Below, one piece after another: positions 30,098-52,183 of a stretch of DNA of 64,000 nt; the stretch's first letter is position 1, and every line of letters starts with the position of its first letter. Position numbers and translations under genes: made by a program. The stretch spans positions 14,231 to 78,230 of the forward strand of contig CACYXJ010000002.1 in NCBI GenBank assembly GCA_902778375.1. The letters are read 5' to 3'. This DNA comes from an uncultured Erysipelotrichaceae bacterium (GTDB lineage: Bacteria; Bacillota_I; Bacilli_A; Erysipelotrichales; Erysipelotrichaceae). Below the pieces are notes generated by a model, which was not told the DNA's origin, ran no database searches, and saw nothing but the letters and a program-made list of their open reading frames with translations.

Positions 30098-32134
30098 ATG
30101 CTGCAAATCAGAGATAAAAAAGAAGATGTATACAGAAAGCACAAAACAGCATTCGCATGGCGTATTTTGTACTTCAGTGTCTGTTTCTTTTTTTTGTTTA
30201 CCGTTGAAGCAAACGCTTATATTGATCCGTCTGTCATGACCTATGCCATCCAGGCGATTGCCGGCATTGCGATTGCACTGGGTACATTTTTCAATATCTA
30301 CTGGCGCAGACTCTGGAAAAGAATAGGCTGGAACGGATTGTTTTCAACTAAATATGAAAAAACAGAATCCGATGAACTGTACTTTGATGACCCGGTGTCC
30401 CGGCAGCGAATCCAGCCGGAATACAAACCAGGAAATGACGTACAGGTTCAGAAGGAAAAAGAGCCGTTCCTTCGGAAACTGTGGAACGAGTACAAGTATG
30501 CGCTGATTCTTGCGGCGTGCGGAAGCTTCCTCATCATGATCTTCAGCCCGCTTGATCTGTATTTCAATAATATGAAGGACTTCTGGTTTGATTTTGGAAT
30601 TGTCTTCCCGATTCTGTTCAAATCATTTATAAAATGTTTCCTGACATTATCAGCGCTTTTCCTGGTATGCCTACTGCTGTTTGATGAACTGTATCATGTG
30701 GTCTATATCGGCGCTTTTGCGGCTTTTGTCTGCGCGTATATACAAGGAAACTTTCTGGCCGGAAAACTGCCGTCACTGGATGGTTCGGCGATCGACTGGT
30801 CACTTTATCACATACAGATGCTTCAGTCCAGATATCTGTGGAGCCTTTTGCCACTGGCTGTTTTATTGATTGCCCGGTTTGTCAGAATGAAGGGCTTTTA
30901 TAAGATTACAAAGTACGTGAATCTTCTGATTACGGCAATGCTTGCTGTATCCCTCCTGACAGTCGGAATCAGGAACAAAGGATTTTCGGACAAGAACTAC
31001 CGCATTGCCACATCCGATCATCTATTCGAAATGTCAGAGAAGCAGAATTTCATTATTCTGATGGTCGACGCTCTGGATGCCCGGATTTTTGGGCAGATCA
31101 TGCAGGAAAACCCTGAATACGCGGAATACTTTGAAGACTTTACATTTTTCCCGGATACTGTCGGAGCCTATACTTTTACGAGTTATGCGATGCCGCAGGT
31201 TCTGACAGGAGAATGGATGGAAAACCAGACGGATTACCAGACCTATTTTTCCGAGGCGATGGACAATTCTCCGTTGTTTGCGGATCTGAAGGAGAAGGAT
31301 TACCGGATGGGTATGTATGAAACAAACCTGTATTATGACAGCGATAATATCTATCAGTTTGAAAACATCCATGACGCAGAAGTCGACTTTAAATCAAGAG
31401 ATGAATTCATGGAGACAGAAAAAGAACTGTTTATATTCAAATACGCACCGTATCAGCTGAAAAGAGATCATGTTCCGGATATGCTCACTTTTTACCGCAC
31501 TCAGCAGATCAACGGTGATATGGACATATTCTCGGACAACAACGAGAACTTTTATAATAAGATTCACTCCGAGCCGATTGTCATGACGCAGGACAAATGT
31601 TTCAAATTCATCCATATCGAAGGTGCTCATGTGCCGTTCCGCTATAACAAGGATGTGGAGCGGATCGATACAGAAGACGGTTCTTATGAACAGAACGTAC
31701 TATGCAGCATCACGATCATGAATGCGTATCTGAGCGCTCTGAAAGAAGCAGGTGCTTATGACAATACGGCAATTATCATAATGGGAGACCATGGATTCAA
31801 TTATGACAATGATGAATACTGGGGTCGCTGGAATCCCGCACTTCTGGTCAAAGGCATTGACGAGCATCATGAGTATACTGAATCACTGGCACCGCTTTCC
31901 TTTGATGATCTGCAGGAAGCATACAGAAGACTGGAAGAAGGACAGCCAGCAGAGGCGTGTTTCGATGCTGAAGAAGGCGATATGAGAGAACGCCGGTATA
32001 TGCATTTTATCCGGGAAGCAAAAATCACCGAATACATACAGACCGGTTATGCGGCGGATGAAGAAACACTTGTTCCCACAGGAAGGGTTTTTGAAAGAGC
32101 CGTCGATTATCTGGCAGAATTCCATATCAACTGA
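30098..32134 (+). CDS. LtaS/EptA-like membrane alkaline-phosphatase-superfamily transferase, paralogue 1 (YIDPS module)
   Basis: Signal-like N-terminus, YIDPS-TM, ~5 TMs, then 'VDALD', 'FTSYAMPQVLTG', 'HIEGAHVPF', 'MGDHG'. Confidence 0.75.
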   Translation: MLQIRDKKEDVYRKHKTAFAWRILYFSVCFFFLFTVEANAYIDPSVMTYAIQAIAGIAIALGTFFNIYWRRLWKRIGWNGLFSTKYEKTESDELYFDDPVSRQRIQPEYKPGNDVQVQKEKEPFLRKLWNEYKYALILAACGSFLIMIFSPLDLYFNNMKDFWFDFGIVFPILFKSFIKCFLTLSALFLVCLLLFDELYHVVYIGAFAAFVCAYIQGNFLAGKLPSLDGSAIDWSLYHIQMLQSRYLWSLLPLAVLLIARFVRMKGFYKITKYVNLLITAMLAVSLLTVGIRNKGFSDKNYRIATSDHLFEMSEKQNFIILMVDALDARIFGQIMQENPEYAEYFEDFTFFPDTVGAYTFTSYAMPQVLTGEWMENQTDYQTYFSEAMDNSPLFADLKEKDYRMGMYETNLYYDSDNIYQFENIHDAEVDFKSRDEFMETEKELFIFKYAPYQLKRDHVPDMLTFYRTQQINGDMDIFSDNNENFYNKIHSEPIVMTQDKCFKFIHIEGAHVPFRYNKDVERIDTEDGSYEQNVLCSITIMNAYLSALKEAGAYDNTAIIIMGDHGFNYDNDEYWGRWNPALLVKGIDEHHEYTESLAPLSFDDLQEAYRRLEEGQPAEACFDAEEGDMRERRYMHFIREAKITEYIQTGYAADEETLVPTGRVFERAVDYLAEFHIN

Positions 32135-32194
32135 TATCCGGCAATATGGTCCGATAACCGGTTATCAAGATCGGAAGCAGAAAGGAGAACGCCG

Positions 32195-33091
32195 ATGAGC
32201 CTGACAAGGAAACAGTTTGATGTTCTGGAAGTATTGGCCACATCAGAAGAGACTCTGACGCAAAGAGAACTTGAGGCTGACACCGGACACAGTCTGGGAA
32301 CGGTAAACCGTATTCTCAAAGAATTGAATGAACTTGGTTATGCCGGAAACGGAAAGATCACCAATGCCGGCATGACAGCTTTGGAACCATATCGTGCGAA
32401 AAGAGCGGTTTTTATTGCGGCCGGATTTGGTTCCCGCCTTGTTCCGATTACTTTCAATACTCCCAAACCTCTGATTCGTGTTCAGGGTGTTCGCATTATT
32501 GACCGTCTGATTGATGCATGTCTGGAAGTTGATATTGATGATATTTACATTGTCCGCGGACATCTCGGAGAACAGTTCGACCAGCTTCTCTATAAATATC
32601 CGATGATCAAGTTTCTGGAAAATCCTATGTATAACGAGACAAACAATATCTCCAGTTCCTTGGTCGCGCGGTATCTGCTTTCCAACGCATATGTGTTCGA
32701 AGCAGATCTTCTGATATCCAATCCAAAGATTATCAGGAAGTATCATTACACTTCCGACTTCCTGGCAATCAAAAAGGAACGCAGCGACGACTGGTGCCTT
32801 CGGGTCAGAAACGGTGTGATCGTTGAAGAAATGGTCGGCGGAGAAGGCGACGATATCTGGCAGATGGTCGGTATATCTTACTGGAATGAAGCAGACGGCA
32901 ATATGCTTGCCCAGGATATCCAGGAGGTATATGCATCTCCCGGCGGAAAGGAACGTTATTGGGAACAGGTGCCGCTGGTATACAGAAAAGAGCGGTATGC
33001 TGTCAGGGTTCAGGAATGCTTTGAATCAGATGTCGTGGAAATCGACACCTTTACCGAACTGAAGGCAATTGATAAAACATACGACGTGTAA
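32195..33091 (+). CDS. Winged-helix + LicC-type cytidylyltransferase
   Basis: wHTH 'LTQRELEADTGHSLGTVNRILKEL'; NTase 'AAGFGSRL.P.T...PKPL', 'NNISS', 'EADL', 'DDW', 'GISYW', 'YWE', 'EIDT'. Confidence 0.85.
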   Translation: MSLTRKQFDVLEVLATSEETLTQRELEADTGHSLGTVNRILKELNELGYAGNGKITNAGMTALEPYRAKRAVFIAAGFGSRLVPITFNTPKPLIRVQGVRIIDRLIDACLEVDIDDIYIVRGHLGEQFDQLLYKYPMIKFLENPMYNETNNISSSLVARYLLSNAYVFEADLLISNPKIIRKYHYTSDFLAIKKERSDDWCLRVRNGVIVEEMVGGEGDDIWQMVGISYWNEADGNMLAQDIQEVYASPGGKERYWEQVPLVYRKERYAVRVQECFESDVVEIDTFTELKAIDKTYDV

Positions 33092-33176
33092 ACCTGGCAA
33101 TTTGTGACAGTTGACATCAGATCAAGGAACGATTGTTCAAAATTTCAAATATTTCTTCTAAAATGGAACATATATA

Positions 33177-33250
33177 TTGACGTTTATAGTTTGCGTTATT
33201 AAAATTATGTTCAGTTCTTGTTAAAAACACAGTTCAACGTGAACTGTGTT
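33177..33250 (+). promoter_or_regulatory. Sigma-A promoter of the ABC operon and downstream 11-3-11 palindrome
   Basis: TTGACG (33177-82), 17 bp, TAAAAT (33200-05); AACACAGTTCA-acg-TGAACTGTGTT (33226-50). Confidence 0.7.
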
Positions 33251-33340: not shown

Positions 33341-34384
33341 ATGAAAAAGAAAAACATGAGCATGGCTGCGTTTCTGTGCAGTGCGGCACTTGTACTGACA
33401 GGCTGCGGTTCTTCCAACAGTGCGTCCGGTACTGAACCGGCTTCCAGCGGCGGAAAAGACCGCGTAGTCATCTATACAGCTGCTGAAGATGAGCGGATTG
33501 AATATATTCAGCAGGAACTTGATAAGCAGTTCCCGGATACTGAAATCGTGATTCAGTCGCTTGGAACAGGCCAGCTTTTATCGAAACTGCAGGCAGAAGG
33601 TACAAACAGCGACTGTGATATCTTCTATGATCTGGAAGTTGTGAATGCGGAAATCATTCTGAACGCATCTCCGGATCTGTTCGCGGATCTTTCCGAATAT
33701 GACTTCTCTATTTACGATGCGTCTGTTACCGGCTATACTGATCGTCATCACCAGTATGCAGTCAACGGCAAGACAGCTGGTGCGTTCCTGGTCAATACCA
33801 AGGTTCTGGAAGAGAAAGGTCTTCCGGTTCCGGAAACATATGAAGACATGCTGAAGCCCGAATATGCCGGTCTGATCTCAATGCCGAGTCCCAAGTCTTC
33901 CGGAACGGGTTACAGCTACTACAACGGAATGGTTACTGTTCTTGGTGAAGAAGCAGGTATGAAGTACTTCGATGACCTGAACCCGAACATCAAGGAATAT
34001 ACAACTTCCGGTTCTGCTCCGGCAAAGGCAGCTGTCCGCGGTGACGTCGCAATTGCTTACGGTCTGCTCTGGCAGTGTGTCAACTATGCCAACGAGAATG
34101 AAGGGCTGAAAGTCATCATTCCTGAAAACGGGCTTGCCTTCGATCTGTTTACCATGGGCATGATTTCCGGTCATGAAACAAAAGGCAGCGTCAAGGAAGT
34201 GTTCACTTATCTGTATAACGAACTGAACAAGCCGCAGTGTGCGAAGTTCAATCCGGATAAGATCTACGTAGATATGCCGGCTGCTGAAATTGCAAACTAC
34301 CCGGAAAGCTATGCAGAGATTACCATGAACGGTCTGTTCGATTTCAACTATAAACAGAATCTGCTGGATCAGTGGAAATACTGA
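33341..34384 (+). CDS. ABC substrate-binding lipoprotein, Fe3+/sugar-phosphate/2-aminoethylphosphonate class
   Basis: Lipobox 'LTGC'; 'VIYTAAE', 'GLPVPETYEDMLKPEY.GLISMPSPKSSGTG', 'YTTSGSAP'. Confidence 0.82.
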   Translation: MKKKNMSMAAFLCSAALVLTGCGSSNSASGTEPASSGGKDRVVIYTAAEDERIEYIQQELDKQFPDTEIVIQSLGTGQLLSKLQAEGTNSDCDIFYDLEVVNAEIILNASPDLFADLSEYDFSIYDASVTGYTDRHHQYAVNGKTAGAFLVNTKVLEEKGLPVPETYEDMLKPEYAGLISMPSPKSSGTGYSYYNGMVTVLGEEAGMKYFDDLNPNIKEYTTSGSAPAKAAVRGDVAIAYGLLWQCVNYANENEGLKVIIPENGLAFDLFTMGMISGHETKGSVKEVFTYLYNELNKPQCAKFNPDKIYVDMPAAEIANYPESYAEITMNGLFDFNYKQNLLDQWKY

Positions 34385-34403
34385 TTTCTTAAGAAAGGCT
34401 CAG

Positions 34404-34431
34404 GAATAGCAGGGATGCCTGCTATTCTTTT
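34404..34431 (+). terminator. Hairpin/partial terminator between SBP and ATPase genes
   Basis: GAATAGCAGG-gatg-CCTGCTATTC followed by T run. Confidence 0.6.
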
Positions 34432-34470
34432 CTTAATTATGTCTTTATGAAATACCAGGAGGAAACAACA

Positions 34471-35229
34471 ATGGCAGAACCTATTATTCAGGCAGTCAAT
34501 ATAAGTAAAAAATTCAAGTCCAAAACGGTCCTGGAAGATATTTCCTTTGATATCATGCGGGGAGAATTCCTGTCCCTGCTGGGACCTTCAGGATGCGGCA
34601 AAACAACGATTCTGCGCATGCTGATCGGTATTGAACAGCCTACGGCTGGCAAGATATTGAAAGACGGCGTGGATATCACAAATGCTGCACCGAAAGACAG
34701 AAACATCGGTATCGTTTTCCAGAATTATTCTTTGTTCCCGAATATGGACGTTTACCATAATATTTCCTATGCACTCAGCGCAAAGAAAATGGGAAAGGAA
34801 GAGATTGACAAAAAGGTCAAGGAAATCATCGAAACTGTCGGACTTGAAGAACATATCTATAAAAAACCAAAACAGCTTTCCGGCGGCCAGCAGCAGAGAG
34901 TGGCTATCGCCAGAACGCTGGTTCTGAATCCGGACGTGATTCTGTTTGACGAGCCGATGTCAGCTCTTGATGCGGAAATCAAAGTCATTCTGCGTCAGCA
35001 GCTGAAAGAGATTCAGAAGAAGCTGAAAATAACGATGGTGTATGTCACTCATGACCAGGAAGAAGCGTTTGCGCTTTCCGACCGCATCATGGTACTGAAC
35101 GACATGCGGATCATACAGATGGATACACCGTATAACCTTTATCACAACCCGACCGATCCGTTCGTAAAGCGGTTTGTCGTCGATCATCTTGATTTGAAAG
35201 TCAAATCGATAGAGGACAGCATCAAATGA
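34471..35229 (+). CDS. ABC ATP-binding protein (PotA/FbpC class, no TOBE tail)
   Basis: 'GPSGCGKT', 'LSGGQQQR', 'LFDEP', 'VTHD'; GGAGG before ATG 34471. Confidence 0.9.
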   Translation: MAEPIIQAVNISKKFKSKTVLEDISFDIMRGEFLSLLGPSGCGKTTILRMLIGIEQPTAGKILKDGVDITNAAPKDRNIGIVFQNYSLFPNMDVYHNISYALSAKKMGKEEIDKKVKEIIETVGLEEHIYKKPKQLSGGQQQRVAIARTLVLNPDVILFDEPMSALDAEIKVILRQQLKEIQKKLKITMVYVTHDQEEAFALSDRIMVLNDMRIIQMDTPYNLYHNPTDPFVKRFVVDHLDLKVKSIEDSIK

Positions 35230-37796
35230 ACACGCAGATCAATCGTGCCGGCAGAATCATCAAGCATGAATACCTGAGGCTCATATCAATAGGATGTATT
35301 CTGCTGTTTGCCATTCTGCCGCTGCTGACACTGGCATTTCATGTGACCGGGGAGGACTGGAGTTATATTCTGCAGGATGCAACATTCTGGGCAGCTGTCA
35401 AAAATTCCCTGATCTATACGACTGCAGCAGCCGTGACCACCACGGTGCTTGCCCTGGTTGCGGCATATCTGCTGAATACATCAAGTCTGAAGAGGAAAAA
35501 CCTGTTTGTCATTCTTCTGACACTTGGCATGCTTGTACCGACGATTTCCGTCGGTCTTGGTCTGAGAGTGCTTTTCGGTACAAACGGGTTTATCGATCTG
35601 CTTTTCGGGGCGGAGATCGAAGTCAGAGGCTTCTCAGGGCTGATCATGGGTTCAGTAATGACCTCGTTCCCGGCAACGTTTTTGATTCTCTATGATGCCC
35701 TGAACTATGAAGACAAGGGACCTTATGATGCAGCAAGCATCATGGGCATCGGCCGGCTGAGCACTTTCTTCCGAATGACCGTTCCCTATCTCAAGATTGC
35801 CTTGATTTCAGCTTTCTTTGCCTGTTTTACGCTGATCTTTTCCGACTATGGAATGCCGATGGAAATTGCCGGTAAGGTAAGCACCTTACCGATGTATCTT
35901 TACGATCAGTTCATGAGTAGCTTTCAGTATGGAAGAGGTTCGATTGCCGGCTTTGTTCTGCTGGTGCCTTCCATTGTTTCCTTTGTATTCGATTTGATCT
36001 TCAAGGATCAGAGTGAAAGCGAAAAGCAGAAAAAACTGATCGAAGCGGAAAAGAGTTTCAATATCGGCACAGCCGTGGTCATTACGCTGCTGTGCCTGGT
36101 TCTTTTCCTGCCGCAGCTGGCATTTATCAGCCTGTCTCTGACAAGGGCATTCCCGAACGATCTGTCGTTCACCTTTGAACACATTGCAAATATCTTCTCG
36201 AACACACACGGAGTGGGCCTGACGGCGTATATCTGGAATTCCCTGTCGCTGTCACTGCTTACGGCACTGTTCGGTACCGCATTTGCCTATCTGCTCGGTT
36301 ATCTGAGTGTCAGAAAAAGCGGCAGAATGGCAAAGGTCGTCAACCTGCTGGCATTGAGTACGATTGCTATTCCCGGTCTGGTACTGGGTATCGGTTTTAT
36401 CTTCCTGTTCAAGGGGACAAACGGCTATTTCTATGGGACCGTTCTGATCCTGGTTGTCGTGAATATCTTCCATTTCCTCGGATCACCGTATCTTCTGGCA
36501 AAGAACTGTCTCAGCAAGATCAACAGTGATTATGAGATTATCGGTGAGACACTGGGGATTTCCAAGGGACAGATCATCAGAAATGTTCTGATTCCCAATT
36601 CAGTGTCCACTCTGGTTGAAATGTTCTCGTATTTCTTCCTCAACAGCATGATTACGATCTCGGCTGTTGCCTTCCTGTGCAGTTATGACAACCAGCCGCT
36701 GTCCATCCTCATCACAACATATGAGAAAAACAGCAACTACGAGATGCAGAGCGTTATTTCTCTGATCATTCTGTTCCTCAACGTTGTAGCCCGGACCGGA
36801 TTTACGGCAATTGCAAACACATTACGTAACGCTGAAGCTAAAGAAGTTGACGGCGGCATCGGTCTTGAACGCCATGAATTTGATTTCCTGACATATCTGG
36901 AGAAACAGGGCAGAGGGCAGTACAGTCTTAGAAAAATGGCTGATGATCTGACAATTTCCCTGAATAACGTACAGAAATATCTGAAAGAGCTGAACGACAG
37001 GAACTATATCAATATTTTTGCGGACGGCAGTATTGAAATCAGCGAAAAAGGACTTAAGGCGCTTGAACCGTACAGAGTCCGCAAGGCAATCATCCTGGCA
37101 GCCGGCTTCGGTTCCAGACTGGCTCCGGTCACGCTGGATACACCTAAGTCGCTGGTCAAGGTCAACGGAGAAAGAATCATCGATACATTACTTGATGCTC
37201 TGGTTGCCAAGGGTATTACCAACATCACAATTGTCAGAGGCTACAAAAAGGAACAGTTTGATGCCTTGCTGGAGAAGTATTCTACGATCCGGTTCATTGA
37301 CAATCCGGAATACAACATCACCAACAATATTTCTTCCGCTGTCTGTGCAGCTGACCTGATTGACCGTTGCTATATCTGCGAAGCTGATCTGTATATCACC
37401 AATCCGGATGTCATAAACAAATATGAATATCAGTCCAATTATCTCGGGGCAAAGGTATCCGAAACGGATGACTGGTGCTTCAAAAAGATTAACGGTGCGG
37501 TTGCGGATTATCAGATGGGCGGTACAGACTGCTATCAGGCATTCGGTATCTCATACTGGAACAGTGAGGATGCGGAAAAACTGAAAGCAGACCTCCGCAA
37601 GGTATACGCCAGCAGAGGCGGCAAGGAAAACCTCTGGGAAATCGTACCGCTGAGAATCATGAAAAAGAAGTATCATCTGGAAGTCCGCAAATGTCATAAG
37701 AGCGACATTATCGAAATCGACAACTTTATCGAACTGATAGCGGCAGACAGTTCATATGCCCATTATCCGGGATATGAAGGTTTCCGGGTAGAATGA
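35226..37796 (+). CDS. Fusion: double ABC permease + winged helix + LicC-type cytidylyltransferase
   Basis: Two EAA-like loops ('DAASIMG', 'IIGETLG'); then 'YSLRKMADDLTISLNNVQKYLKEL'; then 'AIILAAGFGSRL', 'NNISS', 'EADL', 'DDW', 'GISYW', 'EIDN'. Single uninterrupted ORF. Confidence 0.85.
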   Translation: MNTQINRAGRIIKHEYLRLISIGCILLFAILPLLTLAFHVTGEDWSYILQDATFWAAVKNSLIYTTAAAVTTTVLALVAAYLLNTSSLKRKNLFVILLTLGMLVPTISVGLGLRVLFGTNGFIDLLFGAEIEVRGFSGLIMGSVMTSFPATFLILYDALNYEDKGPYDAASIMGIGRLSTFFRMTVPYLKIALISAFFACFTLIFSDYGMPMEIAGKVSTLPMYLYDQFMSSFQYGRGSIAGFVLLVPSIVSFVFDLIFKDQSESEKQKKLIEAEKSFNIGTAVVITLLCLVLFLPQLAFISLSLTRAFPNDLSFTFEHIANIFSNTHGVGLTAYIWNSLSLSLLTALFGTAFAYLLGYLSVRKSGRMAKVVNLLALSTIAIPGLVLGIGFIFLFKGTNGYFYGTVLILVVVNIFHFLGSPYLLAKNCLSKINSDYEIIGETLGISKGQIIRNVLIPNSVSTLVEMFSYFFLNSMITISAVAFLCSYDNQPLSILITTYEKNSNYEMQSVISLIILFLNVVARTGFTAIANTLRNAEAKEVDGGIGLERHEFDFLTYLEKQGRGQYSLRKMADDLTISLNNVQKYLKELNDRNYINIFADGSIEISEKGLKALEPYRVRKAIILAAGFGSRLAPVTLDTPKSLVKVNGERIIDTLLDALVAKGITNITIVRGYKKEQFDALLEKYSTIRFIDNPEYNITNNISSAVCAADLIDRCYICEADLYITNPDVINKYEYQSNYLGAKVSETDDWCFKKINGAVADYQMGGTDCYQAFGISYWNSEDAEKLKADLRKVYASRGGKENLWEIVPLRIMKKKYHLEVRKCHKSDIIEIDNFIELIAADSSYAHYPGYEGFRVE

Positions 37797-37824
37797 CACG
37801 TCGGTTCTGTTACAAAGCATATTG

Positions 37825-37848
37825 GCCATGGTGAAAACCATGGCTTTT
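37825..37848 (+). terminator. Terminator after the ABC operon
   Basis: GCCATGGT-gaaa-ACCATGGC-TTTT. Confidence 0.7.
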
Positions 37849-37956
37849 CTGATGATTTAAGTATGTTAATAGTTTGGAAAAAAGAGTAAGTTTCGTTTAC
37901 CTTACTGCATACTGTGCGGTAAAATGAAGCGGATACAACAAAAGAAGGAGTTGAGT

Positions 37957-44350: not shown

Positions 44351-46330
44351 ATGAGAAAAATGCTGAAAAGCGGAATACGGTATGTTTATTTTTCAACAGC
44401 CTTTCTGTTTCTTTTCACAATCCAGGCAAATGCATATATTGATCCTTCTGTCATGACCTATGCAATTCAGGCGCTTGCCGGTATTGCGATTGCATTAGGC
44501 ACATTCTTCGGACTGTACTGGCGAAAGATCCGGAAACCGATTCTTCACTTCTTTAATCTGGATGAAACCGCCGGAAGAGAAACAGAATCGGATGAACTGT
44601 ATTTTTATGATGCTTCCTGTATGAAGGAAGAAAGGCGTATCACACTGTCTTTGGACAGTCCGGATAAAAAGTCTGTAAAGGATAAAGGAAAGTTCGGACA
44701 GATTCTTTCCGACCTTGTACCGGCACTGTTCATTACTCTTTCCGGATGCTTTATGCTGTGTATCTGTGCGCCGCTGGATCTGTATTTCAACAATAAGAAT
44801 GAATTCTGGTTCAATACAGACATTCTTGTTCCGCAGCTGATCCGCATGATGTGCATGATTGCACCGGTTGTGCTTCTGGTGTATCTGCTGATCCGGCTCA
44901 TCAACAAAAAAGCATATTATATTTCTCTTGTCGTTTCTGTGATTGCCTTTGTATGTTCCTATATTCAGGGAAATTTCCGCATCAAAAATCTGCCTCCGAT
45001 GGACGGCTCTTCTGCCGACTGGTCACGCTATACAGGCGAGAACATCATAACGCTGCTGATATGGATTGCTGTCGGAACAATAGTGGTATGGATTTACCGG
45101 AAGGTAAAGGACAAAGGTTTTGCGTCCGTTGCGGAAGTGGTCAGTGTGCTGATGGCGGTTATTCTTTCCATTACACTTGTAACAACTGCCATTGGATCCA
45201 GAAATGTTATCAAGAAAGCATTGTATGTAGCAACAAAGGACGGTGAATTCAAAGCCTCAAAGCAGGATAATCTGTTTATTCTGGTTCTGGATGCGCTGGA
45301 TGCGTATACCTATGATGAAGTGGCACTTGCTCATCCGGAGTATAAAGAATGGTTTGCGAATTTTACGTATTATCCGAATACGACCAGCGTGTTTCCGTTT
45401 ACGACCCGCTCCATACCGCAGATGTTGACGGGAAAGATTTTCGAAAACGAAACGGACTTTACAGAATACAGCACGGATGCACTGGACAATGCGGAATTCC
45501 TGCGGCATCTTGAAGAACGCAATTATCAGATCGGTATTTATGAAACCGAATTATCCTATAACGGAGATAAACTGTCCCGTTTTGAAAACATCCGGACAGA
45601 TGATGTTGAACTGAACATGGCTGCGAAGAACACCTTTATCAAGGAACAGTTCAAGCTTGTTCTCTTCAAATATCTCCCGTACTGTTTCAAGCAGTATGTT
45701 GACTGCAATACCAACAGTTTTATCAGTATGATCTGGCCGCCGCCGTTCCGTACGGACAACTGGGATTTTTACAATGATATCCATACAGCGGAAACCGAAT
45801 ATATCGACCAGAACAATTTCCGGTTTATTCACGTGGAAGGAGCACATGTGCCTTTCAGATATGACAAGGATATGAACTGGATTTCTGAAGACGAGGGATC
45901 ATATTACAAAAATATCGAAGCGAGCATGACGCTTGCCAATGCATATATTCAGAAACTGAAAGATGCCGGAGTGTATGATAATTCCGCAATCATTATCATG
46001 GCTGACCACGGCTCCAGAATTCTTGATGAAGAGGAAGATGAATTATACAAATTCAATCCGATCTTCATGGTCAAGGGAATCGGAGAAAATCATGAGTACC
46101 GTGTCGATCAGGCACCGCTCTCCTATGAAGATCTGATCGAATGCTATGAAAGGCTGATGGATCATAAGCCCGCATCAGAATGTTTTGACTGGAAAGAGGG
46201 AGATCACCGTGTCAGACGGCTGATCTGGTCGGCATGGCTGCAGGAAGACCACATGATCGAATATACATTGGACGGACATGCTTCAGAATTTGAAAAAATG
46301 GAACCGACAGGAAGAGAATTCAACCGATAA
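44351..46330 (+). CDS. LtaS/EptA-like membrane transferase, paralogue 3 (YIDPS module)
   Basis: 'ANA|YIDPSVMTYAIQ', 'LDALD', 'FTTRSIPQMLTG', 'HVEGAHVPF', 'MADHG'. Confidence 0.75.
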   Translation: MRKMLKSGIRYVYFSTAFLFLFTIQANAYIDPSVMTYAIQALAGIAIALGTFFGLYWRKIRKPILHFFNLDETAGRETESDELYFYDASCMKEERRITLSLDSPDKKSVKDKGKFGQILSDLVPALFITLSGCFMLCICAPLDLYFNNKNEFWFNTDILVPQLIRMMCMIAPVVLLVYLLIRLINKKAYYISLVVSVIAFVCSYIQGNFRIKNLPPMDGSSADWSRYTGENIITLLIWIAVGTIVVWIYRKVKDKGFASVAEVVSVLMAVILSITLVTTAIGSRNVIKKALYVATKDGEFKASKQDNLFILVLDALDAYTYDEVALAHPEYKEWFANFTYYPNTTSVFPFTTRSIPQMLTGKIFENETDFTEYSTDALDNAEFLRHLEERNYQIGIYETELSYNGDKLSRFENIRTDDVELNMAAKNTFIKEQFKLVLFKYLPYCFKQYVDCNTNSFISMIWPPPFRTDNWDFYNDIHTAETEYIDQNNFRFIHVEGAHVPFRYDKDMNWISEDEGSYYKNIEASMTLANAYIQKLKDAGVYDNSAIIIMADHGSRILDEEEDELYKFNPIFMVKGIGENHEYRVDQAPLSYEDLIECYERLMDHKPASECFDWKEGDHRVRRLIWSAWLQEDHMIEYTLDGHASEFEKMEPTGREFNR

Positions 46331-46409: not shown

Positions 46410-47330
46410 ATGAAGGTGTTTGTAACAGGTGTCGGCGGCCAGCTGGGTCACGATGTCATAAATGAATTGTATAAAAGAGGATATGAAGGTGTCGGCAGCG
46501 ATATTCAGCCTGCGTACAGCGGTGTACAGGATGGAACGGCTGTAACAACAGCACCGTATTTCCCGCTGGATATTACCGATCCGGAAGCAGTCGGGAAAGT
46601 AATCAGGGAAGTAAATCCGGATGTCGTCATTCATTGTGCCGCCTGGACGGCAGTGGATATGGCGGAAGATGATGACAAGGTGGAGAAAGTACGTGCGATC
46701 AACGCCGGCGGAACGCAGAACATTGCCAATGTCTGTAAGGAACTTGACTGCAAGATGGTCTATATCTCCACGGATTATGTCTTTGACGGCCAGGGAGAAA
46801 CACCATGGGATCCAGACTGTAAAGACTATAAGCCTTTGAATGTCTACGGTCAGACAAAGCTGGAAGGCGAACTTGCTGTGGCAAATACACTGGATAAATA
46901 CTTTATTGTCCGGATTGCCTGGGTATTTGGCCTGAACGGGAAGAACTTTATCAAAACCATGCTCAATGTCGGAAAGAAGTATGATACCGTGCGGGTCGTT
47001 AATGACCAGTTCGGAACGCCGACGTATACTCTGGACCTGGCCAGACTGCTTGTCGATATGATCGAAACTGAAAAATACGGGTACTATCATGCGACCAACG
47101 AAGGCGGATATATCTCCTGGTATGACTTCACCTGCGAAATCTTCAGACAGGCGGGGTATACAACAAAAGTCGTTCCGGTTACAACTGAAGAATACGGCTT
47201 AAGCAAAGCAGCCAGACCAACCAACAGCCGCCTGGATAAATCCAAGCTGGTAAAGAATGGTTTTGAACCTTTGCCGACATGGCAGGATGCGCTGGCAAGA
47301 TATTTAATACAGATAAAAGACTCTGAATGA
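46410..47330 (+). CDS. rmlD: dTDP-4-dehydrorhamnose reductase
   Basis: 'GVGGQLG', 'HCAAWTAVD', 'ISTDYVFDG', 'YGQTK', 'GTPTYT', 'AARPTNSRLD'. Confidence 0.92.
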   Translation: MKVFVTGVGGQLGHDVINELYKRGYEGVGSDIQPAYSGVQDGTAVTTAPYFPLDITDPEAVGKVIREVNPDVVIHCAAWTAVDMAEDDDKVEKVRAINAGGTQNIANVCKELDCKMVYISTDYVFDGQGETPWDPDCKDYKPLNVYGQTKLEGELAVANTLDKYFIVRIAWVFGLNGKNFIKTMLNVGKKYDTVRVVNDQFGTPTYTLDLARLLVDMIETEKYGYYHATNEGGYISWYDFTCEIFRQAGYTTKVVPVTTEEYGLSKAARPTNSRLDKSKLVKNGFEPLPTWQDALARYLIQIKDSE

Positions 47331-47346
47331 AAGGTAAGTGATGGAG

Positions 47347-48423
47347 ATGCTTAATTTTACAGTCGGACCGGTAATGAGCAACGAAGAGGTCCGTGCAATT
47401 GGCGGGGAACAGGTACCGTATTTCCGAACAGCAGAGTTTTCGGAACTGATGCTGGAAAACGAAAGACTGATGAAGAAATTCGCAAAGGCAGATGAAGGTG
47501 CGAGAGTAGTTTTCATTACCGGCTCAGGAAGTGCATCGATGGAAGCCAGCGTAATGAACAGCTTTACGCAGCAGGACAAGGTGCTGGTTGTCAATGGCGG
47601 CAGTTTCGGTGCCCGTTTTGTAAAACTGTGCTGTGATGTTCATGAGATTCCGTTCTCTGAAATCAAACTAAGACCGGGACAGAAACTGACGGAAGATCAT
47701 CTGAAACCGTATGACGGACAGGGATATACCGGTTTCCTGGTAAATGTCGATGAAACATCTACAGGTGTTTTATATGATATGGAAATGATCGGCAGATTCT
47801 GCAGAAGGAACAACCTGTTCTTGGTGGCAGACTGTGTCAGCGCGTTCCTGGCGGACCCGTTCAACATGGCAGAAATCGGCGCTGATATTATGATTACCGG
47901 CTCACAGAAGGCACTTGCCTGTCCGCCCGGCATTTCGGTAATCGTTCTGAGCAAAAGGGCGGTCGAGCGGGTCAATCAGATGCATGTCAGGTCACTCTAT
48001 TTCGACCTGAAGGATTCGTTGAAGAACGGGGAAAGAGGACAGACTCCTTTTACTCCGGCAGTATCTGTACTCCGACAGATCAATGCAAGACTCAGGGAAA
48101 TAGAAAGAAACGGCGGCGTGGATACGGAAACAGCCAAGATTGCGGCTCTTGCGGCAGATTTCAGGGAAAAGATCAAAGAACTTCCTTTTGAGTTTGTTTC
48201 CGAAAGCCCGGCCAACGGTGTTACTCCGCTGCATCCGTTGAATGTATCGGCATATGACATCTTCCTTGAACTGAAAGACAACTATAATATCTGGATCTGC
48301 CCGAATGGGGGCGAACTGAAAGATACGGTGCTCAGAGTCGGTCATCTCGGCGACCTGGCACCGGAAGACAACACAACTTTGATCAATGCACTGAAAGACA
48401 TGCAGAGCAGAGGATTGTTATGA
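47347..48423 (+). CDS. Class V PLP-dependent aminotransferase
   Basis: 'FTVGP', 'GSGSASME', 'ETSTG', 'DCVS', PLP lysine in 'GSQKAL'. Start could be 47338/47341. Confidence 0.85.
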
Positions 48424-49724
48424 CGAAAGTAATCACTTACGGAACATATGATCTGATGCATTATGGCCATGTCCGTCTGCTTGAGCGTGCAAAAGCGCTG
48501 GGAGACTATCTGATTGTCGGTGTTACCGCTGAAGATTTCGACAAGCAGCGCGGCAAGATCAATGTCAAGCAGTCGCTGGAAGAAAGAATTGCCAATGTCA
48601 GGGCGACCGGGCTTGCGGATCAGATCATTGTCGAAGAATATGAAGGTCAGAAAATAGATGACATCAAACGATATGATGTTGATATTTTTACAGTAGGATC
48701 TGACTGGGTCGGTGTGTTTGACTACCTGAATGAATACTGCAAGGTTGTATATCTTGACAGAACCCAGGGTATTTCAAGCACACAGCTGCGCCAGGAAAAC
48801 TCCGTGAAAATCGGTATTGTCGGCGCATCCAGAGTTGTCAATAAATTCGGCAATGAATGCGGATATGTGAATGGCATCGAGGTCGCCGGTGTATGTACCG
48901 ATAATACCAAGGTGCTGTCCGAAGAACTTCAGGGAGCAGAACTGACAGGCGATTTCACCCAGCTTCTGACCAAGGTTGATGCTGTTTATATCTATTCCAC
49001 GCCGGAACTTCATTATGATCAGGCAAAGCAGGCGCTGCTTGCAGGAAAACATGTATTATGTGAATCCCCGATCGCATTGAAGAAAGAGCAGTGTATTGAA
49101 CTGTTTCAGATTGCGAAAGAAAAAGGACTTGTTTTGCAGGAATCCATTAAAACAGCATATTCGCTGGCATATTCCCGGCTGGTACTGCTGGCAAAAGGCG
49201 GGAAAATAGGCAAAATCGTTTCAGTGGATACAAGCTGCACAAGTCTGAAGGATCTTCCGGAAGGCTGGGGCAGCCTGGATGACTGGGGACCGACAGCAAT
49301 GCTGCCGGTGCTTCAGCTGCTGGGCACAGATTACAGAAGCATAGAAGTTCTGTCGCAGTTCAACGAGGAAACCGGATTTGATTCATTTACAAAGGTTAAT
49401 TTCCGGTATGACCATTCAGTTGCATCTGTTAAAGTCGCAAACGGTGTTAAGTCCGAGGGAGAACTGATTGTGTCCGGTACAAAGGGATATATTTATGTTC
49501 CTGCTCCGTGGTGGAAAACAGACTATTTCGAAGTCCGGTTTGAGAATCCCGACAACAACAAACGCTATTTCTACCAGCTGGATGGAGAAGGAATCCGGTT
49601 TGCAATTGTTTCCTTCATAAAGGCGATCGAAGGAATACAAAGCACAGGATATATTGAAGAGAGCGTTTCGGAAGCCATTTCAGGCGTTATCGAGTATTCA
49701 AAGGAAAACGCAATAGTACTCTGA
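48420..49724 (+). CDS. Fusion: TagD-like cytidylyltransferase + Gfo/Idh/MocA oxidoreductase
   Basis: '[11 protein letters not shown]', 'RTQGISST'; then 'IGIVGA', 'GKHVLCESP'. Confidence 0.85.
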
Positions 49725-49747
49725 ACAGGATGAATATCACCGGAAAG

Positions 49748-49778
49748 TAAATCTGCTTTGACTGCAGATTTATTTTTT
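49748..49778 (+). terminator. Terminator
   Basis: TAAATCTGC...GCAGATTTA followed by T6. Confidence 0.65.
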
Positions 49779-49864
49779 GAGTCGTACAATCAGAAAGTCA
49801 GAATCAATACAGACAAGAATAAAATATAGGTTTAGGGTACAATAGAGGAGATAAAGAGGTAGTT

Positions 49865-50473
49865 ATGGGACAGATTGCAGTAGAAAAAAACGTAGGAGGC
49901 ATTGAAGGCCTTTGCATAATCACCCCGGCAGTACACGGAGACAGCCGCGGGTACTTTATGGAAACATACAGTCAGCGTGATATGGAAGAAGCAGGAATCA
50001 ACATCATATTTGTGCAGGACAATCAGTCGATGAGTACAAAAGGTGTTTTAAGAGGTCTTCACTTCCAGAAGAACTATCCGCAGACCAAACTTGTCAGAGT
50101 CATAAAAGGTTCTGTTTATGATGTTGCGGTCGATTTGAGGGCTGATTCCGCAACATACGGCAAATGGTTTGGCGTGGAGCTGACGGAAGAAAACAAGAAA
50201 CAGTTCCTGATTCCGCGCGGATTCGCACATGGTTTTCTGGTATTGTCCGATACAGCTGAGTTCTGCTACAAATGCGATGACTTTTATCATCCGAATGATG
50301 AAGGCGGCATGGCATGGAACGATCCGGAAATCGGTGTGGTATGGCCGCAGCTGAAAGGTGAGTATAACGGTACGGCAAGCGCTGAAGGCTATACCATGGA
50401 AGACGGAACGTTGCTGAATCTTTCAGAAAAAGACCAGAAGTGGCTGGGGCTGAAAGACACTTTCAAATTCTGA
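49865..50473 (+). CDS. rmlC: dTDP-4-dehydrorhamnose 3,5-epimerase
   Basis: 'DSRGYFME', 'QDNQS', 'GVLRGLHFQ', 'VAVDLR', 'FAHGF'. Confidence 0.93.
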   Translation: MGQIAVEKNVGGIEGLCIITPAVHGDSRGYFMETYSQRDMEEAGINIIFVQDNQSMSTKGVLRGLHFQKNYPQTKLVRVIKGSVYDVAVDLRADSATYGKWFGVELTEENKKQFLIPRGFAHGFLVLSDTAEFCYKCDDFYHPNDEGGMAWNDPEIGVVWPQLKGEYNGTASAEGYTMEDGTLLNLSEKDQKWLGLKDTFKF

Positions 50474-50481
50474 GGCAGAAG

Positions 50482-51264
50482 ATGGATCATTCGTTTGTAA
50501 TATGCGCATATAAGGAAAGCCGGTATCTTGAGGAATGTATTAAATCGTTAAAAGAGCAGGTGGAAGAATCTGTTGTTTTAATGGTTACCTCAACACCGAA
50601 TGCGTATATTTCCGGTCTGGCTGAGCAGTATGATATTCCTCTTTATATCAATGAAGGAGAATCCGGGATTACCCAGGACTGGAACTTCGGCTACAGTAAG
50701 GCAAAGACAAAATATATAACGATTGCCCATCAGGATGATATTTACTGCAGAACATACTCCAGAACGGTTCTGCAGCGGCTGCGCAGCAATCCGGATGCTC
50801 TGATTGCCTTTACGGATTACGGAGAACTTCGCGGCCAGCAGACTGTTGAAAGCAATATCAACCTGATAATCAAAAGAATTCTGTTATCCCCGCTGAAAGT
50901 AAAAGAGTTCAGGAAAGTCAATTCCATAAAGCACAGAGTGCTGTCACTGGGCAATCCAATCTGCTGTCCGGCAGTCACTTTCAATTCCGAACTGCTTCCT
51001 GAACAGGTGTTTGCAAATCATTTCCGAAGCAATGAAGACTGGGAAGCGTGGGAAAAGATTGCCCGGCGGGAAGGTTCGTTTGAATATATTCCGGAAGTTC
51101 AGATGTATCACAGAATTCATGAAGAATCAGAGACCTCAGCGATTATAGGTGATAACAGCAGGTCAAAAGAGGATTATGAAATGTTTATAAAGTTCTGGCC
51201 GGAGCTTATTGCAAAAGGACTGACAAAGCTTTATTCTCTGAGCGAGAAATCAAACCAGTTATGA
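50482..51264 (+). CDS. GT2-family glycosyltransferase
   Basis: 'VICAYKE', 'IAHQDD', 'EDWEAW', 'HRIHEESET'. Confidence 0.82.
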   Translation: MDHSFVICAYKESRYLEECIKSLKEQVEESVVLMVTSTPNAYISGLAEQYDIPLYINEGESGITQDWNFGYSKAKTKYITIAHQDDIYCRTYSRTVLQRLRSNPDALIAFTDYGELRGQQTVESNINLIIKRILLSPLKVKEFRKVNSIKHRVLSLGNPICCPAVTFNSELLPEQVFANHFRSNEDWEAWEKIARREGSFEYIPEVQMYHRIHEESETSAIIGDNSRSKEDYEMFIKFWPELIAKGLTKLYSLSEKSNQL

Positions 51265-51274
51265 GGGAACTGAT

Positions 51275-52183
51275 ATGAGTGAATATGATGAAATAACATT
51301 GAAAAGACTGCAGAGCATAGAACTGATGATCGTAAATGACCTGAAAAGGCTGTGTAAGAAACATGATCTTCAGTATTTTGGCTTTGCAGGAACCGGCATC
51401 GGAGTTCTGAGACACAAAGGTTTTATTCCCTGGGATGATGATATTGACATTGGGTTCCTCCGGCCGGATTATGAAAAATTTATCCAATATGCAAAGGAAG
51501 AACTGAACGACAAATACATTGTCATGAACGCTGAAACAGATCCGGATTATCCGCTTATGACGACCCGTCTTATGCTGAGAGGGACCAGATTCAGGGAAGA
51601 GGCTCTGAAAGATCTGAAATGTGAACTGGGTGTTTTCCTGGACCTGTATGCTTTTGATCAGGCCAGCGATGATGAAAAAGAGTTCAGAAAGCAATGCCGG
51701 GAAGCGTGGTGGTACAGTCATCTCATGATACTGAGAAGTATTCCTTTCCCGGTGCTTCCTGTGAAAGGGATAAAGGCAAAACTCGCTCATGCAGCTACTG
51801 CTGCAGTGTATGGCGGACTGACCCTTTTCCATGTATCCAAGACAAAGCTGGCACAGAAAGCCAAGGAGGCTGCCACAAGATTCAATAACGGACCAAAAAC
51901 AAAAAATGTTAATTTCTTTTTTGACACACTGCCTGATATGTGTGTGTACGGATACGATGAACTGTTTCCGCTGGTAGAACTTCCGTTTGAAAATACGACA
52001 TTATCATTCCCGAAAGAGCAGGACCGGTATCTGCGCTCCTTTTACGGCGATTACATGCAGCTGCCGCCGGCGGAGAACAGGAAAAACCACTATCCTCATG
52101 AACTGGATTTTGGTCCGTATAAAGATGTTCCGCTTGAAGAACTGAGAGATCCTGATAAGTACATCGATCCGGCAAAACTCTAA
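51275..52183 (+). CDS. LicD-family phosphotransferase
   Basis: 'GTGIGVLRHKGFIPWDDDIDIG', 'LDLY', 'YLRSFYGDYMQLPP'. Confidence 0.9.
   Translation: MSEYDEITLKRLQSIELMIVNDLKRLCKKHDLQYFGFAGTGIGVLRHKGFIPWDDDIDIGFLRPDYEKFIQYAKEELNDKYIVMNAETDPDYPLMTTRLMLRGTRFREEALKDLKCELGVFLDLYAFDQASDDEKEFRKQCREAWWYSHLMILRSIPFPVLPVKGIKAKLAHAATAAVYGGLTLFHVSKTKLAQKAKEAATRFNNGPKTKNVNFFFDTLPDMCVYGYDELFPLVELPFENTTLSFPKEQDRYLRSFYGDYMQLPPAENRKNHYPHELDFGPYKDVPLEELRDPDKYIDPAKL

Follow-up and report, generated by a model that had tools for sequence, protein, structure and literature searches.

A widely conserved YidC-TagF fusion paired with LtaS-like membrane enzymes, a candidate head-group decoration system in a wall-polysaccharide locus of a bovine-gut Erysipelotrichaceae bacterium

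Background

About half of the bacterial phosphonate gene clusters are thought to serve the decoration of cell surfaces, and the steps that follow nucleotidyl activation of the head group have been called enigmatic (PMC6697681, PMC8942020). Here we analyze a block of 16 co-directional genes (positions 30098-52183, all on the + strand) within a stretch of 64,000 nucleotides of contig CACYXJ010000002.1, from here on the window, which belongs to a bovine-gut Erysipelotrichaceae (Solobacterium-like) bacterium. The core of the block is an uncharacterized, widely conserved pair: a fusion of a YidC/Oxa1 domain with a TagF-like domain (YidC-TagF, gene g08) and a family of LtaS-like membrane enzymes (hereafter Sulf), of which the window encodes three. 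A first-pass annotation of the block had proposed one dedicated pathway in which a scavenged phosphorylated amine is imported, activated with cytidine diphosphate (CDP), relayed across the membrane and installed on a glycan. All the components that it listed were recovered at 30098-52183 on the + strand by Pfam, NCBIfam and PDB sequence searches, while the single dedicated pathway gave way to a mosaic of separately conserved modules that do not form one fixed operon: an ATP-binding cassette (ABC) importer joined to a LicC-type enzyme, two LicC-type enzymes with an APC permease, YidC-TagF with three Sulf, an aminotransferase with a TagD-GFO protein, and rhamnan backbone genes with LicD. All parts come from known families; their combination and the mechanism proposed for it are new. 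The explanation that we consider best as a whole, with about an even chance of being right, is that several donor-supply modules feed one transfer machine working as an inside-flip-outside relay, and there is a substantial chance that this is a new class of surface-decoration system.

The closest described activating enzymes are LicC of S. pneumoniae and PntC of T. denticola and A. rimae (PMC6697681). The cytidylyltransferases of the window share their fold, align with them over the full length, would likewise activate the head group directly with cytidine triphosphate (CTP) and have wall-glycan genes nearby; one of them (g06) is 50% identical to a PntC linked to the phosphoenolpyruvate (PEP) mutase Ppm. 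Unlike in these systems, one copy in the window is fused to an ABC permease through a winged helix-turn-helix domain (wHTH) and a second copy bears the same wHTH, the supply is by import instead of Ppm, Ppd and an aminoethylphosphonate (AEP) transaminase (AEPT), no kinase is present, and the downstream transferases are YidC-TagF and LtaS-like enzymes instead of LicD alone.

For the outer-face enzymes the relevant comparison is with LtaS/LtaP, GacH/SccH and EptA/MCR-1. On the outer face, the characterized members LtaS, GacH and EptA use a membrane lipid as donor of the head group (bioRxiv 10.1101/337519). Sulf shares with this group an N-terminal bundle of transmembrane (TM) segments ahead of a catalytic domain outside the cytoplasm, a Thr nucleophile, a DHG metal pair and an HxP motif, as well as the presence of several paralogues in one locus, and GacH also lies in a rhamnan locus. 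It differs in that LtaS is reached only with a family profile, in a distinct N-terminal module (signal-like TM, YIDPSVMTYAIQ motif, 6 TM segments) and in its coupling, at times as a fusion, with a cytoplasmic CDP-alcohol transferase, so its donor is probably not bulk phospholipid.

The logic of the proposed relay, i.e., to load a lipid carrier inside, flip it and transfer the cargo to a polymer outside, is that of the GtrA/GtrB/GtrC and CsbB/GtcA/YfhO glycosylation systems (PMC8035078). In contrast to those, the proposed cargo is a phospho(no)-alcohol head group and not a sugar, the inside enzyme has the TagF (GT-B) fold instead of GT2, the presumed flippase is YidC/Oxa1 instead of GtrA, the outside enzyme belongs to the alkaline-phosphatase superfamily and not to GT-C, and parts are fused. 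TagF/TarF/TagB and the TagF-like capsule polymerases resemble g08 in the Glyphos_transf domain, in being cytoplasmic and membrane-adjacent, and in providing its top fold match (3L7K); in g08, however, the anchor is a complete YidC domain and not amphipathic helices, the neighboring donor genes suggest CMP-AEP (CMP, cytidine monophosphate), CDP-choline and CDP-amino-alcohols rather than CDP-glycerol or CDP-ribitol alone, and the similarity lies below what a profile search of PDB picks up. With the YidC/Oxa1 insertases, g08 has in common the 5-TM core, the cytoplasmic hairpin, conserved core residues and the positive groove charge, whereas it lacks a lipoprotein signal, has a groove Lys for Arg and an insertion of ~85 amino acids (aa) between TM2 and TM3, and carries an enzyme in place of the C-terminal tail. 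Finally, the Selenomonas ppm clusters of GCF 400, the 'Group 4 phosphonolipids' (Li and Horsman 2022, PMC8942020), likewise place AEP genes beside sulfatase-family genes in anaerobic Firmicutes-type bacteria; there the association alone was noted, and neither YidC nor a TagF-type transferase is mentioned.

The YidC-TagF fusion and its LtaS-like partners

The core of the block consists of the following genes:

40261..42375, + strand: g08, YidC-TagF fusion, 704 aa (Pfam 60KD_IMP and Glyphos_transf)
30098..32134, + strand: sulf1 (g01), LtaS-like membrane phosphotransferase paralogue, 678 aa (Pfam Sulfatase 36.6 bits, cutoff 25)
42359..44341, + strand: sulf2 (g09), LtaS-like membrane phosphotransferase, 660 aa (AlphaFold2 fold and family profile)
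44351..46330, + strand: sulf3 (g10), LtaS-like membrane phosphotransferase paralogue, 659 aa (Pfam Sulfatase 28.5 bits)

The N-terminal part of g08 is a YidC/Oxa1 domain with five TM segments (PF02096, 115.6 bits against a cutoff of 35; TIGR03592, 110.9 against 84.3), followed by a TagF-like part that is predicted to be cytoplasmic (PF04464, 46.3 bits against 22.1, residues 326-607). The groove arginine R366 of E. coli YidC aligns to Lys34 of g08, by which the charge is kept and the residue changed, and K34 is invariant in 12 homologues; the insertion of ~85 aa, which lies on the outer face, is conserved as well. An AlphaFold2 (AF2) model of g08 with a predicted local distance difference test (pLDDT) score of 82 had TagF (3L7K) as its top Foldseek match (E 2.8e-9, probability 1.0). 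Invariant in the family are His431 (within PHG in the consensus and SHG in g08) and, in the RPHPQH motif, His539 and His545; we take the catalytic His pair of S. epidermidis TagF to be H444 and H584. With its stop codon, g08 runs 17 nt into the start of sulf2. Two homologues (P0363 and P0368) have N-terminal extensions of ~210 and ~320 residues, which are not Sulf-like.

The three Sulf proteins are full-length paralogues (sulf1 is 41% identical to sulf2 and sulf3, and the latter two are 62% identical to each other) with a common YIDPSVMTYAIQ motif at the N-terminus, directly after a signal-peptide-like segment. The shared N-terminal module that had been proposed for three LtaS/EptA-like enzymes is thus borne out; no Pfam model matches it. 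In sulf1, the signal-like TM is followed by YIDP at residue 41, six TM segments and an outside domain of the alkaline-phosphatase superfamily with DHG at residue 564. An alignment of 28 sequences showed D315, D318, T352, H495, H500, D553 and H554 of sulf2 to be invariant, with T352 at the position of the sulfatase formylglycine cysteine, 9 residues before an LTG motif, and without a CxPxR motif. While sulf2 as a single sequence found no match in PDB, the profile of the 28 sequences had LtaS and LtaP (lipoteichoic acid (LTA) synthase and primase) as best PDB matches (~1e-6), with HxPF and DHG aligned to H416 and D475/H476 of LtaS. The AF2 model of sulf2 (pLDDT 83) matches PbgA/YejM and MCR-1 over the full-length fold, and its helices agree with hydropathy in the N-terminal TM domain. 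Lys and Arg together number 16, 2 and 2 on the predicted inner loops vs. 0, 1 and 2 on the outer ones (positive-inside), a pattern that places the catalytic domain on the outer face. Because of the invariant Thr and metal residues, the LtaS profile alignment, the fold and the loop charges, we assign the Sulf family to the Thr-nucleophile phospho-group transferases of the LtaS/EptA kind, as putative members with an N-terminal module of their own.

The first hydrophobic segment of g01, g09 and g10 (30098-30230, 42359-42460 and 44351-44450) ends in an AxA-like site (VQA and ANA, each directly before YIDPS), and the YIDP motif may be the mature N-terminus on the outer face. As a separate observation, sulf2 is only 91% identical to its counterpart in another Erysipelotrichaceae metagenome-assembled genome (MAG; locus L081, 8009-9991), whose neighboring proteins are 98-99% identical to those of the window, which suggests local diversification or recombination of one surface-exposed enzyme.

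Coupling of the pair across genomes

At least 486 GTDB species-representative genomes have a homologue of YidC-TagF; they belong to Erysipelotrichaceae, Lachnospiraceae, Oscillospiraceae and uncultured Bacilli, with a single Saccharibacteria bin in addition. Relatives of the fusion form 576 clusters at 50% identity (E<=1e-30). For a neighborhood survey, 80 loci were fetched with 10 kb flanks, 42 of them being at least 18 kb long ("long" loci), and were annotated with the window proteins as queries as well as by unbiased all-against-all clustering. Sulf was the sole near-universal neighbor of YidC-TagF (70/80 loci; 38/42 long loci), present in 1-6 copies that are mostly adjacent and on the same strand. 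The co-occurrence of YidC-TagF with YIDP-motif transferases, which the first-pass annotation had put forward as one of the points on which its proposal would stand or fall, holds for that pair and extends to fusions in one protein.

In 15 separate clusters among the best representatives, one polypeptide of 1168-1545 residues comprises all three parts, in the order YidC-TagF-Sulf in 7 clusters and Sulf-YidC-TagF in 8. The two orders agree with a single topology, in which the YidC N-terminus and the Sulf catalytic domain lie outside and TagF lies inside. Artefacts of gene calling were considered as a source of these fusions and judged unlikely, given the 15 separate clusters, the continuous reading, the two orders and the coherent topology. 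Since natural fusions in both orders are classical fusion evidence, they indicate that YidC-TagF and Sulf act together. In YidC-TagF-Sulf fusions, the first segment of Sulf must serve as an uncleaved TM.

The pair can also stand by itself, as in Waltera, where YidC-TagF and three Sulf form a four-gene cassette among housekeeping genes. The gene arrangement in the window is not due to chance, since the L081 MAG repeats the architecture with proteins that are 91-99% identical, and the adjacency of YidC-TagF and Sulf recurs in those 70 loci of other species. In the source records the proteins go under the names 'membrane protein insertase YidC', 'sulfatase-like hydrolase/transferase' or 'ABC transporter permease subunit', and full-text literature searches returned no description of a YidC-TagF fusion or of its pairing with Sulf, the closest statement being the one on the Selenomonas ppm clusters (PMC8942020).

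Donor gene sets beside the pair

In five loci YidC-TagF lies among AEP biosynthesis genes (L002, L058, L059, L070 and L079). Four of these (L058, L059, L070 and L079) encode a PEP mutase fused to a cytidylyltransferase-like domain, the phosphonopyruvate decarboxylase Ppd, AEPT and a PntC-type nucleotidyltransferase (NT). The L079 enzymes score above the NCBIfam cutoffs (given in brackets) with 413 (319) for PEP mutase, 467 (361) for AEPT and 445 (312) for Ppd, and homologues of all four L079 AEP genes are present in L058, L059 and L070; L002 has Ppm, AEPT and NT, with Ppd not found in the stretch fetched. A 653-aa protein upstream of Ppm in L079 was considered as a divergent Sulf and ruled out (hhalign probability 0.4%).

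Other loci point to other head groups. In L088, an NT-Ppm fusion, an iron-containing alcohol dehydrogenase (Fe-ADH) and Ppd directly follow YidC-TagF and Sulf, a set that would be expected for hydroxyethylphosphonate (HEP-type product); the 673-aa protein encoded at 10059-12080 of this locus combines NTP_transf_3, CTP_transf_like and PEP_mutase domains. In L090 (1236-17326), a choline kinase, LicC, IspD, YidC-TagF, two Sulf, Gtf3 and LicD are followed by two choline-binding-repeat proteins, which by gene content ties the pair to a classical choline-phosphate surface. An NT fused to a HisC/CobD-like pyridoxal phosphate (PLP) enzyme was found in ~17 loci. The donor type partly tracks the YidC-TagF tree. 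Judged by these neighbors, the pair is associated with small polar head groups activated by CMP or CDP, most of them amines and several of them phosphonates.

Candidate import and activation modules in the window

Two modules of the window would supply such a head group, namely the importer cassette and the LicC-type genes with the APC permease:

33341..34384, + strand: g03, substrate-binding protein (SBP) of an organophosphate/phosphonate ABC importer (best NCBIfam PhnS2)
34447..35229, + strand: ABC ATPase of the importer (ABC_tran E 6e-38; best NCBIfam PhnT2)
35226..37796, + strand: g05, double-domain ABC permease + wHTH + LicC/PntC-type cytidylyltransferase, 856 aa (two BPD_transp_1, NTP_transferase; best NCBIfam PhnU2)
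32195..33091, + strand: g02, MarR-type wHTH + LicC/PntC-type cytidylyltransferase, 298 aa (Pfam MarR_2, NTP_transferase; PDB 1JYK E 7e-23)
37924..38658, + strand: g06, stand-alone LicC/PntC-type cytidylyltransferase (PDB LicC 8e-29, Tde-PntC 1e-18)
38675..40150, + strand: APC-family permease, 491 aa (AA_permease_2 E 1e-41)

The families PhnS2, PhnT2 and PhnU2, which we take to be equivalogs of a putative AEP ABC transporter, are the best NCBIfam matches of the importer without equivalog status (SBP vs. TIGR03261, 169 bits with a cutoff of 392.75; ATPase vs. TIGR03265, 332 with 457.7; permease vs. TIGR03262, 298 with 593.25). The nearest solved relatives of the SBP are AfuA, which binds sugar phosphates, and P5PA, which binds PLP, and the importer is assigned by these matches to the organophosphate/phosphonate class, in line with the phosphate-ester class of the first-pass annotation. 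The cassette, consisting of SBP, ATPase and the permease-wHTH-NT protein, is framed by a promoter-like site (33177-33205) and terminator-like hairpins (34402-34429 and, terminator-like by itself, 37824-37845). A search of the whole window with Rfam matched no family, therefore no known riboswitch precedes the importer.

Permease-wHTH-NT proteins form more than 120 clusters with 79-87% protein identity in Lachnospiraceae, Oscillospiraceae and others, under the source name 'ABC transporter permease subunit' only. The cassette looks like an exchangeable unit that is horizontally exchanged as such, because it stands alone among housekeeping genes in L085 and L086, and is inverted in the close relative L003 with a similarity no higher than that of Lachnospiraceae copies. 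It joins YidC-TagF in only ~4/42 long loci, which, together with the stand-alone Waltera cassette, is what speaks against one dedicated pathway. In L087 it is accompanied by a g02-like wHTH-NT (80% identical), an APC permease (71%) and a PF01663 phosphodiesterase, and the combination of APC and LicC-type genes is repeated in L001, L005, L062 and L087; the APC permease is a candidate for the uptake of an amine or a zwitterionic precursor of the head group. Two further observations concern the cassette. Its protein identity of ~80-86% is kept across different bacterial families (window 33341-37796; L003, L085, L086 and L087). In L087, the PF01663 gene (type I phosphodiesterase / phosphonoacetate-hydrolase family, 5327-6220) lies between wHTH-NT and APC permease, and its product may free the precursor of the head group from a larger compound.

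The three LicC-type NTs occur in three forms, with a wHTH (g02), with a permease and a wHTH (g05) and alone (g06), just as the first-pass annotation had listed them. Pfam NTP_transferase and NTP_transf_3 match all three, which count as LicC/PntC cytidylyltransferases by the nucleotidyltransferase fold with its N-terminal GxGxR signature and by their likeness to LicC. Of the two that were searched against PDB, g02 and g06, both had pneumococcal LicC (1JYK) as best match (residues 67-293 of g02 and 7-242 of g06), while the assignment of the g05 NT as LicC-type goes through the 46% identity of its C-terminal 320 aa to the whole of g02 and not through a PDB search of its own.

Choline-specific LicC has Asp105, Asp192 and an aromatic box of Tyr85/Trp136/Tyr190, AEP-specific Tde-PntC has E104, E196 and a smaller pocket, and Ari-PntC was reported to keep the aromatic box (PMC6697681). 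At positions 105/192/85/136/190 (LicC numbering) the window enzymes have E,E,T,W,Y (g02), E,E,T,W,L (g05) and E,D,K,W,F (g06), with Tyr85 of the choline box absent in all three, a pattern that leans towards PntC. Moreover, g06 shares 50% identity (E 1.5e-80) with the NT encoded next to PEP mutase in L079 and is a candidate CMP-AEP synthase. Among the window open reading frames (ORFs) scanned, neither a choline kinase LicA (Choline_kinase/APH domain) nor an EamA/LicB-type protein was found, so the block is not a canonical licABCD, in agreement with the first-pass annotation; kinase, Ppm and Ppd were likewise absent among the scanned ORFs of the 64 kb window.

A scavenged phosphorylated or phosphonylated amine is suggested because of the identity of g06 to PntC, the E/E positions, the PhnS2/T2/U2 matches and the lack of kinase, Ppm and Ppd. 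The idea of import, activation and transfer of a phosphorylated amine thus holds up, with the qualification that, for the head group in the window, a phosphonate (AEP) or some other primary amine has a higher likelihood than a phosphate ester of the choline type.

Aminotransferase, TagD-GFO and LicD

Three further genes of the block encode putative enzymes of head-group synthesis or transfer:

47338..48423, + strand: g12, class V aminotransferase of the PDB 3F0H type (Aminotran_5; PDB 3F0H E 5e-170)
48420..49724, + strand: g13, TagD-like cytidylyltransferase + GFO/IDH/MocA oxidoreductase, 434 aa (CTP_transf_like, GFO_IDH_MocA; PDB TarD/TagD E 3e-35)
51275..52183, + strand: g16, LicD-family phosphotransferase (Pfam LicD PF04991 122 bits, cutoff 22.6, full profile)

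An identity of g12 as AEP transaminase (PhnW/AepZ) was rejected (TIGR03301, 149 bits vs. 360.8; 22% identical to the L079 AEPT); it is placed by similarity in another class V subfamily as a close homologue of the uncharacterized PDB 3F0H. The score of g13 against TIGR01518 (113.7 bits) is below the cutoff of 165.4, with TarD/TagD still its best PDB matches. Besides the window, seven loci have the pair of aminotransferase (AT5) and TagD-GFO; AT5 precedes TagD-GFO in six of these (L034, L046, L049, L071, L074 and L076), and in one (L038) the two are split around Sulf and YidC-TagF. In 6/8 loci the pair directly follows YidC-TagF. Dehydrogenase-aminotransferase pairs that turn CH-OH into CH-NH2 on activated sugars are known, e.g., WbpB/WbpE and GnnA/GnnB. 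By analogy, TagD-GFO and the class V aminotransferase would form a de novo branch that makes a second CDP-linked amino-alcohol, possibly from CDP-glycerol through CDP-dihydroxyacetone to CDP-2-aminoglycerol (CDP-serinol).

LicD, for which a search of PDB returned no match, lies between the GT2 gene and the Wzx flippase. It is a candidate for action on the cytoplasmic face, with CDP-ribitol, CMP-AEP or another CDP-alcohol as donor. Its presence agrees with the first-pass annotation, which had counted it to the head-group pathway; LicD may equally use CDP-ribitol from the divergent IspD and SDR pair upstream and be part of a CDP-ribitol branch.

Genomic context

The surroundings of these modules, inside and outside the block, are as follows:

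26205..29984, - strand: divergent four-gene unit of IspD-type cytidylyltransferase, short-chain dehydrogenase/reductase (SDR), Bac_transf initiating transferase and GT4 (IspD E 8e-43; Epimerase; Bac_transf E 4e-52; Glyco_transf_4)
46410..47330, + strand: RmlD, dTDP-4-dehydrorhamnose reductase, backbone sugar supply (TIGR01214 287.8 bits, cutoff 224)
49865..50473, + strand: RmlC, dTDP-4-dehydrorhamnose 3,5-epimerase (TIGR01221 232 bits, cutoff 156)
50440..51264, + strand: GT2 glycosyltransferase (Glycos_transf_2)
52192..56478, + strand: Wzx-type flippase and GT2 glycosyltransferases, 3' of the block (Polysacc_synt/MurJ, Glycos_transf_2)
56543..62660, + strand: ABC-2 polymer exporter pair, large GT2 and DUF2142 membrane protein (ABC_tran, ABC2_membrane, Glycos_transf_2, DUF2142)

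RmlD, RmlC and GT2 lie inside the block and had gone unlisted in the first-pass annotation. With glycan genes on both flanks and the Rml genes, the setting is therefore a rhamnose-type wall-polysaccharide locus, of which the block is the variable decoration part. The upstream IspD and SDR appear to be a CDP-ribitol-synthase-like pair, and the genes at 56543..62660 a context of rhamnan export and side chains.

The closest genomes by g08 are Solobacterium sp. RGIG2362 (95% identity) and Erysipelotrichaceae NK3D112 (91%). The locus DNA was matched in bovine gut metagenomes, and several genes of the block by bovine metatranscriptome contigs, with a sparse coverage that is too little for an operon definition.

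Directly 5' of the glycan locus lies a defense-island-like block (18657-25758, +). It encodes a TerB_N/TerB_C protein of 620 aa, an ATPase of the BrxC/BrxD type (PF10923, E 2e-167), a DEAD/Helicase_C protein of 774 aa, a protein related to LURP-one and an ORF of 302 aa that matches no Pfam family. The window's left end (547-2659) encodes a YkuD-type L,D-transpeptidase that carries Ig-like repeats (-) and a member of the GH25 lysozyme family (+).

Proposed mechanism and competing explanations

In the mechanism that we propose, the ABC importer for organophosphonates/phosphates would bring in a ready-made amine head-group precursor, probably with the APC permease as a helper, and with AEP (2-aminoethylphosphonate) as the leading candidate and phosphoethanolamine as a possible one. 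The three LicC/PntC-type NTs, one of them tethered to the permease, would form the CMP or CDP conjugate without a kinase step. The TagF domain would then move the phospho(no)-head group from the nucleotide to a membrane-anchored carrier inside, the YidC-type domain would pass the polar head through the bilayer by means of its hydrophilic groove and invariant Lys, and the three Sulf enzymes would load it on their Thr outside and attach it to the wall glycan or a lipid-anchored polymer.

A relay is proposed because a CDP-alcohol transferase is fused to YidC, is coupled and even fused to an outer LtaS-type enzyme, and travels with unusual donor sets, whose head groups are absent from ordinary Firmicute phospholipids. 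That the pair is an unrecognized, widespread transmembrane head-group relay, in which the YidC fold was re-purposed from protein insertion to head-group crossing, is a tentative reading to which we give somewhat less than an even chance.

Several points weigh against the proposed relay. On the supply side, the importer scores lie far under the NCBIfam equivalog cutoffs, hence its ligand is only putative, g06 is mixed (E/D) at the two specificity positions, and we know of no precedent for a class V aminotransferase acting on a CDP-linked ketone. The TagF domain of g08 is divergent, with its catalytic His residues placed by motif alone, and the profile of the TagF-domain family gave only chance matches against PDB sequences and no TagF alignment. 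The lipid-linked intermediate and its flipping by the YidC domain are steps that we infer. Regarding the pair itself, a Sulf homologue occurs with a stand-alone TagF and TagD and without YidC in L083, another without YidC and without TagF in L089, and 4/42 long YidC-TagF loci, including the Ppm loci L070 and L079, have no Sulf within 10 kb. Finally, LicD and the Wzx flippase in the locus could complete a purely cytoplasmic decoration route.

These last points also favor the competing explanation that survives best, unlikely as we consider it, in which there is no relay: TagF and LicD would decorate the undecaprenyl-linked glycan inside, Wzx or ABC-2 would export the product, Sulf would be separate with bulk phosphatidylglycerol or phosphatidylethanolamine as donor, and YidC would be an anchor or a private insertase/chaperone for Sulf. 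The Wzx flippase, the ABC-2 exporter and LicD are all in the locus, LicD1/D2 and TagF act on the cytoplasmic face in known teichoic-acid pathways, and the YidC domain retains the family core and scores above the YidC model cutoffs. Every characterized member of the Sulf-related family works with a membrane-lipid donor in this way (bioRxiv 10.1101/337519). Such a division of labor, however, is exceeded by the three-part fusions in both orders and the near-universal adjacency, for which an anchor or a generic donor would give no need, and it is hard to square bulk-lipid use only with a pair that follows donor sets as different as AEP, HEP-type, choline-phosphate and amino-alcohols. The change of the groove Arg to an invariant Lys and the conserved outer-face insertion of ~85 aa speak against it as well.

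A second explanation, which we hold to be improbable, keeps the joint action of the pair and changes its end product to a membrane lipid or an LTA-like polymer. YidC-TagF would make a phosphono- or amino-alcohol-phospho-glycolipid that Sulf primes and extends outside, and the location in a rhamnan locus would be incidental. The Waltera cassette, which stands alone and away from glycan loci, fits such a product, and so do the nearest solved relatives of Sulf by sequence, which are the LTA synthase and primase, and the number of its paralogues, multiple paralogues being typical of LtaS systems. In addition, according to the part of PMC8942020 that cites Yu 2013, the Selenomonas ppm clusters that hold 'multiple sulfatases' had previously been assigned to the phosphonolipids. 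Against it, glycan genes enclose the cassette in the window, in L081 and L003 and in many further loci, L090 joins it to choline-binding wall proteins, and no glycolipid-anchor synthase was seen adjoining it.

That the block is a lic-type phosphocholine system, with import of phosphocholine or glycerophosphocholine, CDP-choline made by the LicC homologues and choline-phosphate added to the glycan by LicD, is very improbable, since the best PDB match of the two searched NTs (pneumococcal LicC), the presence of LicD and the joint occurrence of LicA, LicC and choline-binding proteins beside YidC-TagF in L090 are opposed by the lack of LicA and LicB in the window, the replacement of Asp105 by Glu in 3/3 NTs and of Asp192 by Glu in 2/3 with loss of Tyr85 in 3/3, the 50% identity of g06 to the PntC beside PEP mutase, and the fact that proteins with choline-binding repeats were not seen in the window.

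Conclusions

With its place inside AEP, HEP-type and choline-phosphate gene sets, and its presence in hundreds of Firmicutes species of gut and rumen, the YidC-TagF and Sulf pair makes a concrete candidate for the enigmatic steps that follow nucleotidyl activation. If the relay is real, it would provide the transferase step that has been missing for phosphonate (AEP, HEP), choline-phosphate and amino-alcohol-phosphate decoration of Gram-positive surfaces, fed in the window by a transporter that is physically fused to its activating enzyme. Surface zwitterionic head groups affect phage adsorption, antimicrobial-peptide resistance and antibody recognition, and cultured carriers of the pair exist in Waltera species and Erysipelotrichaceae NK3D112. 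A YidC-fold domain would moreover gain a role in an enzymatic pathway beyond protein insertion, which fits the reports that YidC-family insertases scramble lipids (PMC11047089). The scavenging of AEP, if it takes place, would tie these bacteria to AEP producers of the same habitat; AEP was first found in rumen ciliates.

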